From positions 113,460,001 to 113,524,000 of the forward strand of contig OX597822.1 in NCBI GenBank assembly GCA_951406725.2: a DNA stretch of 64,000 nucleotides, read 5' to 3'. Both the position numbers and the translations under genes were made by a program. Shown here in pieces: positions 44,128 through 47,742 of this stretch. Position 1 is the stretch's first letter; every line of letters begins with the position of its first letter. The DNA is from Octopus vulgaris. Lineage: Eukaryota. The notes beneath the pieces are model-generated. The model did no database searches, had not been told where the DNA came from, and saw only the letters and a program-made list of their open reading frames with translations.

Positions 44128-44281
44128 CCTGCTCGCTTAGCCATGGGGTGGCGTCATTCGAAGGCTAAAACAATGCGAACGCATTTTGACCAGCGATGTT
44201 AGTTAGTTAGTTAGTTAATTTGGCTCAAAAGCAAATAGCAAGGCCATGTAGGGGGACATGGAGTTAAGTACAGGGTGGTGT

Positions 44282-47170
44282 TCATGTAAAGAGTTCAGGC
44301 CACTTGAGGTCCAGGGAGGCTTTGAACAAAGCGGTCGTCGGCATCTTCACCATCTCATCTGGCAGCTTCTTCCACGGATCCGCAACCCGGACGGAGAAAG
44401 CTCCTCTCCTTCGATTGAGATGAAATCGTCGCAGGTAGAGCTTTTCGGAATGACCCCGCAACCGACGCTCCGGAGCAGGAGTGAAGAACAGCTCTTTCGA
44501 GAGGTTACACTTCCCGCTTATGATGTTGTGGGCGAGAATGAGATCACCACGGCGGCGGCGTTTTTCAAGAGAATAAAGGTCGAGCGTCCTCAGCCTTTCT
44601 TCGTAGGACAAATTTTTGAGACCATGAACCAGGCGGGTAGCCAGCCTCTGGACTCTTTCGAGGTGCTGTATGTCTTTGAGGAGATAAGGAGAAGAGGCTT
44701 GAATCCCATACTCCAATATGGGTCTCACCAGCGTGACATAGAGTGGCAGGAATATGGCTGCTGTGAGCACTCCGAATGACCGTCGAATCAAAAACAGAAT
44801 TCCGCGCGCTTTGTTGGCAGCATGGACGCACTGGGCCGAAGGCGAAAAGGAGGAATCCACCAAGATACCCAGGTCCTTTACCTGATCGGTCCTCTCCAGC
44901 AGCAGACGACCCGGCTCGAAATCAAGTTGAGTTGTAGGAGTAGAGCCGACAGGCAGATGACAGCACTTTGACACGTTCAGACACAGGTCCCAATCGTTAG
45001 ACCACTTCCAAATTTGGTGGAGGCATCGACGAAGATCCTCTATACTACCGCGAGGAGCGACCAGTTTGATATCGTCGGCAAATAGAAGGGTGTGTTGCGT
45101 GAGGTCGTCGGGCAAGTCATTTATGAAGACTAAGAACAACAAGGGCCCAAGCACTGAACCTTGAGGCACGCCACTGCTCGCACTGGAGACGTCGGACCGC
45201 GAACCATTAACTTGAACTTGGAAGGAGCGATCTGAGAGGAAGGCACCAACCCATCGTACAATATCCGGATGGAAACTATATGCTTGAAGCTTGACAAGTA
45301 GTAGGCGGTGGTTTACCGAGTCAAAAGCTTTGGCAAAGTCCAATAAAACGATGTCAACAGCATCACTATCATCGAGGATGCGTGTCACCAATTCTTCCAT
45401 TACTAGTAAGTTGGTCAAGCATGATCTCTTCGGCACGAAGCCGTGTTGGGAATCAGTGATCGAGGCTGTGTTTAGGAGGTGGAGCATCATACTTTTCTTA
45501 AGGATGGTTTCGAACATCTTGCTGATTATTGATGTAAGGGAAACCGGTCGGTAGTTAAGCGGGTCTTCGCGGCTCCCTTTCTTGAAAATTGGGCAGATTA
45601 TCGCTGTTCTCCAGTCTGCAGGTATAACACCCGTCGCCAATGACATATTGAATAGTCGTGTTAAGGGCTCGCAGATGACCGGAGCCAACGCTTTGATAAC
45701 CCGTGGGTGTATGCCGTCAGGGCCGTGACCCTTGTTGACATCGAGGCCTTGAATAACACGTTTGACTTCGTCCCGCGTGATGATCAATCGAAGCATTGGA
45801 GGTACCGATCTATCAAATGGAGGGGGTTCACGACCATCATCTTGTTTGAAAATAGTTGAAAAAGCCTCGGCAAATAATTGACTCTGTTGATAAGGGTCCT
45901 CAATCGATACGCCTGTTGAGTCTACCAATGTTACAATCTGGTTGTTCAAGCGGGAATTCCGCTGGACATGGGCAAAGAAGGTTTTTGGATTGCTACTGGC
46001 ATTTGCCGCGATTTTGTATTCATAACTGAAGCGTTCTTTCTTTTCAATTTTCACGGCTCGGTCTCGTTGAGTTTTGTACACCTCAAAAGCTGCAGTCGAA
46101 TCCAGATTTTTGAATTCAGCCCAAGCAATATCTCTGAGTCGACGTTCTCGTTTAACCTTCTTCGTCACCCAGGGCTTGTGTTTCTTCCTCTTGGGAAGTC
46201 CAACGGGAACTGCCTGGTCAGTCAAACAGATTACATATGCTTTGAGGGATGACCATAGTTCGTCAACTGAGGACAACGTCATCAGGGAACGCCAGTCCAG
46301 AAGCGCGGAAGCCTCGGTTAGAATTTCAAGATTAATTGCAGAGAAGACTCTACGTGGCAGCGAAGTAATCGTGGGCGTGGAAAAAGTTGTGTGCATGACG
46401 AACTTCAGGACCGCATGATCACTCTTGGCAAGAGGGGCGCACACAGATACGTCTGACACTGATCTTGGATAGCGGGAGAATACCAGATCTAGCATAGATG
46501 GCTGCTGCCCAGACCGATGCCTTGTCGGATATTCAACATGTTGCGATAGAAAACAATCTTCAGCCACGTCAAGAAGGGCCTGGCCGAACCGGGAAGATGT
46601 TGTACAAATTGATGCGGGCCAATCGATCATGGGAGCGTTGAAGTCGCCTAGTACCAAGCAGTCATGCGAAGCTGAAACGAATCTTATCGCCTCGAGTAGA
46701 TGAGCATCGTCCTGGGAGTCGGCTAGAGGCGGCCTGTAGACAGCCAACACGGGCAGGCAAAACTCAGATAGGCTCAGCTTGCAATAGACGGCATCGAATT
46801 TGGTTGTAGGTTGAGCATTTGTGGGTAGAATACCGCAGGACGGTTTGTGCTCAGACTTAACATACACAGCAACACCTCCACCTCGCCTTTTTCCTCTGTC
46901 ACATCTGAAAAGGACGTAGCCCTGCAGGTGGATCTCTGAGTCCTTTACTGCTGGAGTCAGCCAAGTCTCGGTGATAGCTATCACATCAGGGGAGTCGCGT
47001 AGGGCCAGTGTAAATAGTTCACTGAACTTTGGGAATAAGGAGCACGAGTTGGTGTAGACGATGCTGAGCTGTGAAGTCTGAGGGGCGGGAGTTGGGGAAC
47101 AAGCAAAATAAAGGGCATCAGAGATAGCATCGTTGACGGGGGTATCAACTTCACTTCGATTTGCCCTCAC
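44282..47170 (-). CDS. LINE ORF2: AP endonuclease plus reverse transcriptase (CR1/L2 group); frame actually open up to 47398
   Basis: EN motifs VYTN, IAITETWL, VYRPP, GDFN, LDLVF, SDH; RT motifs GPDGI, NYRPVSLTS, QHGF, DFAKAFD, GVPQGSVLGPLLF, LFADD; CR1-type C-terminus RRRRGDL..LRGH..RV..WKKLP; no RNase H or CCHC. Confidence 0.95.
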   Translation of the reverse strand: MRANRSEVDTPVNDAISDALYFACSPTPAPQTSQLSIVYTNSCSLFPKFSELFTLALRDSPDVIAITETWLTPAVKDSEIHLQGYVLFRCDRGKRRGGGVAVYVKSEHKPSCGILPTNAQPTTKFDAVYCKLSLSEFCLPVLAVYRPPLADSQDDAHLLEAIRFVSASHDCLVLGDFNAPMIDWPASICTTSSRFGQALLDVAEDCFLSQHVEYPTRHRSGQQPSMLDLVFSRYPRSVSDVSVCAPLAKSDHAVLKFVMHTTFSTPTITSLPRRVFSAINLEILTEASALLDWRSLMTLSSVDELWSSLKAYVICLTDQAVPVGLPKRKKHKPWVTKKVKRERRLRDIAWAEFKNLDSTAAFEVYKTQRDRAVKIEKKERFSYEYKIAANASSNPKTFFAHVQRNSRLNNQIVTLVDSTGVSIEDPYQQSQLFAEAFSTIFKQDDGREPPPFDRSVPPMLRLIITRDEVKRVIQGLDVNKGHGPDGIHPRVIKALAPVICEPLTRLFNMSLATGVIPADWRTAIICPIFKKGSREDPLNYRPVSLTSIISKMFETILKKSMMLHLLNTASITDSQHGFVPKRSCLTNLLVMEELVTRILDDSDAVDIVLLDFAKAFDSVNHRLLLVKLQAYSFHPDIVRWVGAFLSDRSFQVQVNGSRSDVSSASSGVPQGSVLGPLLFLVFINDLPDDLTQHTLLFADDIKLVAPRGSIEDLRRCLHQIWKWSNDWDLCLNVSKCCHLPVGSTPTTQLDFEPGRLLLERTDQVKDLGILVDSSFSPSAQCVHAANKARGILFLIRRSFGVLTAAIFLPLYVTLVRPILEYGIQASSPYLLKDIQHLERVQRLATRLVHGLKNLSYEERLRTLDLYSLEKRRRRGDLILAHNIISGKCNLSKELFFTPAPERRLRGHSEKLYLRRFHLNRRRGAFSVRVADPWKKLPDEMVKMPTTALFKASLDLKWPELFT

Positions 47171-47709
47171 ATCACTTTCCCTGTCAGCACTACAGCATGG
47201 GACCAGAGGTAGGACTTGATTATCTGTCCATCTTGGATTCGTAAACCCTTCTCTCCCATTTGTTTCCTCATCTTTAGCTCGGATATCAGGTTCCTCCGGC
47301 GAATTCTCTCTCTTAGTGAGTATTCCTCGCGAAAACCCATATTGGGGTCCTCCCAGGCATGCGTCTGAGCTCTGTTCAGAAAGACTGAAGCCTCCCGATC
47401 AGAAGAAAAGATTACCCTTATTGGGCGTGGTCTAGTATCTGCGGTTGGGTTCGCTTGGAATCTTCCTAGCCGAGCGACCTTAAGAACACTGACATTTTCG
47501 TTCACAGAGAACAATTTTCCAACCAAAATGGAAACAAAATTAATGTCATCTTTTAGGCGGTTTATGCCTGTATCACAGGTGGATTCCGCTTTGCCATATA
47601 TTATTGCCGATCTTGAGTGGGCAAAAAGTTCTCTACTATGAGCTGCGGTATTCGATTCTTCGTTGGAGGATTTCGAAAGAGTGGTTTCATAGCCATCGGA
47701 CTTATGTCG
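47167..47709 (-). CDS. LINE ORF1, C-terminal part (RRM/CTD-like RNA-binding region); N-terminus lost by 5' truncation
   Basis: AIIYG..E, RLGRF...RPRPIRVIF, basic tail ERIRRRNL..ELKMRK, typical of CR1/L2 ORF1; the first 10 aa of the track ORF come from flanking SINE DNA. Confidence 0.8.
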   Translation of the reverse strand, partial: RHKSDGYETTLSKSSNEESNTAAHSRELFAHSRSAIIYGKAESTCDTGINRLKDDINFVSILVGKLFSVNENVSVLKVARLGRFQANPTADTRPRPIRVIFSSDREASVFLNRAQTHAWEDPNMGFREEYSLRERIRRRNLISELKMRKQMGEKGLRIQDGQIIKSYLWSHAVVLTGKVM

Positions 47710-47742
47710 GTAACAACATCTGATGGTCTGGTCGGTCACGTG

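Follow-up and report, generated by a model that had tools for sequence, protein, structure and literature searches.

We examined a 64,000-nucleotide window of the Octopus vulgaris genome (contig OX597822.1, positions 113,460,001 to 113,524,000), which holds on its reverse strand a young, 5′-truncated copy of a CR1-type long interspersed nuclear element (LINE; Table 1). Our subject is how its second open reading frame (ORF2), which overlaps the first (ORF1), comes to be translated. We take the window copy to be truncated at 47710 because most copies found in a DNA search of the same genome continue upstream of that point. Since the truncation removed the promoter and the ORF1 start, this copy cannot start ORF1 itself. 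Full-length copies carry a 5′ untranslated region (UTR) of 1257 nt and an ORF1 of 486 aa.

Several features point to the CR1 group. The ORF2 protein contains both an APE endonuclease and a reverse transcriptase (RT) domain, and the element ends in a short 3′UTR with a tandem-repeat tail, as is characteristic of CR1-group elements. The best named RT matches are bird and turtle proteins (37–47% identity), which we take to be CR1; unnamed proteins reach 48–57% RT identity. The tree evidence for the element is an endonuclease tree. A profile of the ORF1 tail made from 10 relatives, the ORF1 relatives coming only from the 80 metagenome loci described below, matched only L1 ORF1p chains in the PDB (weakly, at E 0.024–0.038). 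There were also weak Transposase_22 leads, and a word-based protein search with the tail gave no match. Weak but consistent, these leads suggest the L1 ORF1p type of tail, an RNA recognition motif (RRM) followed by a C-terminal domain. Such type II ORF1s occur in CR1/L2 elements according to passages of PMC4120745.

Table 1. Features of the CR1-type element, in window coordinates
Feature	Position	Strand	Remarks
Young CR1-type LINE copy, 5′-truncated	44198..47710	(-)	Full-length copies ~5.7 kb
ORF1 3′ part (probable L1 ORF1p-like RRM and C-terminal domain)	47167..47710	(-)	Stop TGA 47169-47167
ORF1/ORF2 overlap, 232 nt, ORF2 in -1 frame, stop-free	47167..47398	(-)	
h1, G_GGU_UUU, in ORF1 phase, likely main -1 shift site	47332..47338	(-)	Aligned to U_UUU_UUU of relatives L133 and L134
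h2, G_GGU_UUA, second heptamer in ORF1 phase	47242..47248	(-)	Unchanged in 70/70 family copies; without counterpart in fetched relatives
ORF2 frame, 1038 aa, intact: linker, APE endonuclease (from ~47068), RT	44282..47398	(-)	First AUG 46630
TGA closing the -1 frame upstream (youngest subfamily)	47399..47401	(-)	CGA/CAA in 38/40 older copies; frame there mostly closes at 47434
AUG-UGA end of ORF1 with overlapping GUG in ORF2 frame	47167..47172	(-)	Recent state, not kept in older copies
Pyrimidine-rich linker, CAG at 47080-47078 and 47071-47069, phase 0 of ORF2	47069..47120	(-)	Resembles a 3′ splice site; use not seen
Short 3′UTR, (AACT)n tail at end	44198..44281	(-)	

Overlapping frames and slippery heptamers

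A preliminary description of the locus had reported the anatomy of this junction, and we could confirm it. The first ORF2 AUG is residue 257, past the GDFN motif of the endonuclease; the ORF2 frame is open from the upstream TGA to 44282 and overlaps ORF1 by the stated length in the -1 frame. The overlap contains two heptamers of the form X_XXY_YYZ, h1 and h2, correctly phased to ORF1, and a -1 slip at either would enter ORF2 and run into its enzyme domains without meeting a stop. The 486-codon ORF1 of full-length copy L004 contains no other in-phase heptamer, and ORF2, read in its own phase, lacks them altogether. By alignment alone, h1 would lie at the end of the RRM.

To judge these features in the window element alone, we resampled ORF1 with synonymous codons. 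A stop-free -1 run of at least 77 codons arose with P = 0.005–0.011, and two or more heptamers with P = 0.06. The -1 frame is open to the ORF1 stop with P = 0.043 when counted from h1 and P = 0.41 when counted from h2. The open -1 frame is thus unusual, and the heptamers alone are not significant without relatives; taken by itself the element is suggestive, not convincing.

Distant relatives were fetched from metagenome contigs by endonuclease alignment or motif alone, so that the ORF junction played no part in their selection. At least 597 stretches matched, 219 were confirmed, and the best 80 were kept. Six of these 80 loci lacked the endonuclease start; the other 74, together with the window element, formed 61 clusters at 80% identity, from which 15 were dropped for a short or unassignable ORF1, leaving 46 families including the window element. 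ORF2 lies in the -1 frame relative to ORF1 in 22 of them (the window element included), in the +1 frame in 12, and in the same frame in 12.

Among the 22 -1 families, 19 have an overlap heptamer in ORF1 phase, compared with 5 and 6 in the other two phases. The sites are A_AAA_AAC in 13 families, U_UUU_UUU in three, U_UUA_AAC and U_UUU_UUA in one each, and G_GGU_UUU/A in the window element. With the window element left out, a heptamer occurs in the last 300 nt of ORF1 in 18 of 21 -1 families versus 5 of 24 families of other frames (Fisher p = 2e-5, a value inflated by relatedness); the background rate of in-phase heptamers is 20 per 11,385 codons. Upstream of the ORF1 stop, -1 families have a median open -1 run of 69.5 codons, versus 7 and 14 in the other classes. 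In 13 families no -1 stop interrupts the 57–78 codons between heptamer and ORF1 stop, with P = 0.0007–0.08 each. In seven families that share an Ala-Lys-Asn (31–72% endonuclease identity), a single codon is kept at only 4 of 28 invariant residues, and three of those four make up GCA-AAA-AAC, around which neighbouring synonymous sites vary freely. Among lineages, the slippery site occupies several different positions in the protein, including the end of ORF1s that are esterase-like (typed by a short motif only).

These patterns bear on two explanations that dispense with frameshifting. The overlap and the heptamers might be by-products of the ORF1 protein sequence, with ORF2 made by internal entry or from truncated copies. 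Gly-Phe and Lys-Gly-Leu do yield heptamers fairly often by chance, and the -1 peptide is not conserved, but the codon-level invariance, the phase lock and the repeated re-placement of the site make such incidental anatomy very unlikely. Equally improbable, in our judgment, is slippage at the RNA level, in which RNA polymerase II or the element's RT adds one base in a homopolymer run and so yields some fused templates. Most relatives' sites do contain runs of 6–8 A or T, but the window sites hold only 3–4-base runs, the lock to ORF1 codon phase stands against it, and the invariant C of A_AAA_AAC is not needed by a polymerase.

In the window element, the ATG-GGT-TTT of h1 aligns with GTT-TTT-TTT in L133 and L134, although just 28 of 80 codons are common at identical residues. 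These two are the nearest fetched relatives and group with the window element in a quick tree (SH-aLRT 91). Conservation of the site beyond protein constraint extends to h1 by its aligned position in these two relatives. The preliminary description had emphasized h2, whose G_GGU_UUA is the slippery site of the yeast L-A totivirus; it is instead the upstream h1 that has a positional counterpart. We favor h1 as the main site because of this counterpart and because of the difference in open-frame probability between the two heptamers.

Side observations on the other families suggest further forms of recoding. In ten families (L159, L163, L167, L170, L188, L191, L196, L197, L199 and L209) ORF1 and ORF2 are in frame across a single stop, which is UGA in 10/10 and UGA-C in 8/10, versus 1/34 in other classes (p = 2e-6); these are likely to form a readthrough class. 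An in-phase UUU_C stands just before the ORF1 stop (within the last 15 codons) in 8 of 12 +1 families versus 2 of 34 others (p = 7e-5), namely in L165, L176, L179, L181, L186, L200, L202 and L210; in L165 the sequence UCC_UUU_CGA resembles the influenza PA-X +1 cassette. One supported clade of a quick endonuclease tree takes in most +1 and readthrough families. Separately, residues 1–69 of P0221, a close ORF2 relative, form an N-terminal extension that fits a -1 reading of a window-like ORF1 C-terminal motif, hinting at another long -1 overlap.

Copies in the octopus genome and other routes to ORF2

A DNA search of the element's own genome (G000, 2.8 Gb) gave 40 scored matches of 314 candidates. 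The 30 young copies fetched are all 99–100% identical; 40 older copies were picked for lower identity (87–97% DNA) from 150 scored matches. h1 is intact in 30/30 young and 33/40 older copies, and its changes are scattered, private and at about the neutral rate. We considered conservation of the heptamers among these copies as evidence of selection and rejected it: private mutation is expected to produce about 5 changes per site, and h1 has 8 (in 7/40 copies) and h2 none. The copies are too alike for a test of selection.

The reading frames are more informative. From 47431 to the endonuclease Asn, 63 of the 70 copies have no AUG in the ORF2 frame, and the other seven owe theirs to scattered single changes. 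At 10 of 100 codon positions upstream of h1, a -1-frame stop is common to at least four copies; between h1 and the endonuclease the figure is 0 of 90 (p = 0.002). The open overlap persists within the family. The coordinates given earlier for the upstream TGA and for the auGUGA junction stand, yet both turn out to be only recent states of the youngest subfamily; 38 of the 40 older copies lack the TGA and have a longer overlap.

The junction also bears on the main rival, AUG-independent termination–reinitiation of the mammalian L1 kind, here at a non-AUG codon (GUG or UUG at 47170, or AUC at 47125). In L1 the ORF2 AUG can be replaced by any sense codon (as cited in PMC1965478), and SART1 couples its ORFs through UAAUG (per passages of PMC2699510 and PMC3708506). 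GUG overlaps the ORF1 stop in 30/30 young copies, and GUG or UUG is found in 24/40 older ones. Broken down, however, the 40 older copies have GUG in 8, UUG in 16, UCG in 13 and other codons in 3; where the codon is UCG, ORF1 runs 21 nt further, to a stop at 47148. The stop therefore moves, and there is no conserved AUG overlapping or adjoining it of the SART1 type. Moreover, in-phase heptamers and a -1 frame that is open ahead of the stop are both kept across families, although reinitiation has no need of either. The GUG start raised in the preliminary description is weakened accordingly, and we regard reinitiation as unlikely, though less so than the other alternatives.

ORF2 could also gain an upstream start if transcripts were spliced to the pyrimidine-rich acceptor immediately ahead of the endonuclease. 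The acceptor, in ORF2 phase 0, is the best pyrimidine-tract AG in the 3.3 kb scanned; the 5′UTR has a GTGAGT donor at 137 nt, and one contig departs from the element exactly there. Yet four runs with complete lists showed no joint or loose end at the acceptor, and none was among those listed in four further runs (14 loose ends not displayed); the runs are contigs, RNA by guess, in which rare forms could be missed. Contigs span the acceptor site unspliced, 0/30 genomic copies bearing the first 137 nt are spliced, that segment has no AUG, and one of the two acceptor AGs is lost in 34/40 older copies. Splicing or leader addition at 47078/47069, looked for in contigs of all eight runs and in 30 genomic copies, was not seen, and we give this route very little weight.

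Some observations concern the wider setting of the element. In the 5′UTR (L071:3926-5182, 1257 nt) the GT donor at +137 is present in 30/30 copies, and an acceptor-like site lies 36 nt before the ORF1 AUG. The contig that exits at this donor (run X9) continues into unrelated sequence and is perhaps a chimeric transcript. Elsewhere in the window, 48800-48693 (-) combines an acceptor, an AUG, 32 open codons and a GTAAGT donor; it has no Pfam match and resembles a host exon on the LINE strand, so that the LINE may sit in an intron of a host gene. None of the listed holders of the element sequence is on record as RNA. The youngest subfamily carries a 291-nt tandem duplication inside ORF1 (L071:5331-5917), which makes its product 486 aa versus ~389 aa in older copies. 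Among the scored matches in this genome we found no second, more diverged family with the same ORF1, and the family looks isolated, with no ORF1 relative below ~83%; a horizontal arrival is possible.

A frameshift model and its relation to known systems

We conclude that ORF2 is probably translated by programmed -1 ribosomal frameshifting, the likeliest site being h1, to give an ORF1–ORF2 fusion. On the RNA of a full-length copy, ribosomes would initiate at the AUG of ORF1, slip back by one base on the heptamer with Gly- and Phe-tRNA, and then read a ~90-codon unconserved linker into the endonuclease and RT. By arithmetic, the fusion would comprise 432 ORF1 residues and 1016 ORF2-frame residues (~1450 aa); h2 may provide a second entry to the same frame. 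The product would keep the ORF1 N terminus and part of the RRM and, more speculatively, might become part of the ORF1p particle on its own RNA, in the way that Gag-Pol joins Gag. No protease domain that would cut it was found in the ORF2-frame protein, and no 2A-like motif was visible by eye in the ORF2 N-terminal linker. Frameshift efficiency is probably low because no 3′ stimulator was found; a low output would suit the small need of a LINE for ORF2 protein. The frameshift reading that the preliminary description had put forward thus gains strong comparative support, and the sequence feature behind it is real.

Several points weigh against this reading. In the window element alone, at least one heptamer is expected by chance with P = 0.34–0.44. 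The nearest fetched relatives are just 33% identical in the ORF1 tail, and their grouping comes from a quick tree. A strict heptamer is missing from three -1 families (L138, L161 and L198), one of which, L138, is placed close to the window element. An AUG precedes the endonuclease Asn in 10/22 -1 families, L133 and L134 among them. In the octopus copies, the overlap has 11 shared changes that alter ORF2 and leave the ORF1 protein the same; because of these, we consider the -1 peptide an unconstrained linker, and the suppression of synonymous variation that had been predicted failed to appear. Stimulators are involved in high-level frameshifting (PMC5009743), and none was found 3′ of h1 or h2, where neither a pseudoknot nor a hairpin more stable than shuffled sequences could be detected (z 0.05–0.64), in agreement with the first inspection by eye. 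Nor did a simple search find an H-type pseudoknot at 20 sites, whose mean z is -0.34, with three below -1.5. RNA structure 5′ of the sites gave no signal either.

The closest parallel is the gag-pol arrangement of retroviruses, long terminal repeat (LTR) retrotransposons and totiviruses, in which a structural ORF is overlapped in the -1 frame by a polymerase ORF. The window element shares with it an in-phase X_XXY_YYZ of a known shift-prone type and a second ORF without a separate start; PMC5009743 lists G_GGU_UUU and A_AAA_AAC with the heptamers most prone to shift. It differs in being non-LTR, in showing no hairpin or pseudoknot 5–9 nt downstream, in the absence of a detectable protease domain, and in the placement of its site 56 codons before the ORF1 stop, within a presumed folded domain. 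The element would thus work like a -1 frameshift cassette, but we do not file it as a classical structure-stimulated member.

Precedents among LINEs exist. The Dictyostelium APE-type LINEs TRE5-A and TRE3-A need a -1 frameshift for ORF2 according to a figure legend of a review (PMC5911963). They resemble the window element in this respect and differ from it in clade, host and an unrelated ORF1. For Paramecium non-LTR groups 1–3, recoding of ORF2 was suggested from consensus sequences, in the form of a +1 shift or reinitiation, or readthrough, not -1, with no motif in the text compared (PMC5405496). The first 300,000 of 449,034 characters of PMC5009743 contain a single "non-LTR" mention, of Drosophila telomeric elements, and the words "frameshift" and "overlap" are absent from the main text of PMC4120745. 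PMC5006619 and PMC13405545 also belong to the background on known systems. Searches of the openly accessible literature, which includes few subscription papers or Repbase reports, brought up no paper on heptamer conservation in LINEs of the CR1 group. Overlapping ORFs were reportedly noted in early descriptions of single CR1-like elements, so the idea may already be published. What we describe would be a known mechanism at work in a class of elements for which it is not yet established.

ORF2 translation in LINEs has been described as unclear beyond SART1 and L1 (PMC3708506). Because the proposed site is a defined stretch of only seven bases and the family is young with intact ORFs, silent mutants could address the question directly. 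If the model is true, current annotations give a wrong N terminus for ORF2 proteins in many CR1-type elements, their active form is an ORF1–ORF2 fusion, and animal genomes hold many natural stimulator-free frameshift sites.

With SART1 and mammalian L1 the window element would share a bicistronic LINE RNA, a probably low ORF2 output and an L1-like RRM-type ORF1. According to PMC1965478, PMC2699510 and PMC3708506, which cite the original work, those elements start ORF2 with an AUG located at the ORF1 stop or beyond it, and their ORF2p is a separate protein. The window element has no such AUG, and its junction is not conserved. We lean toward the broader view that fusion of ORF1 and ORF2 by recoding is the usual way of CR1/L2-group LINEs, at canonical -1 heptamers in some, including the window element, and by UGA-C readthrough or a UUU_C +1 shift in others, an arrangement that would resemble Gag-Pol and not the reinitiation of L1 and SART1.

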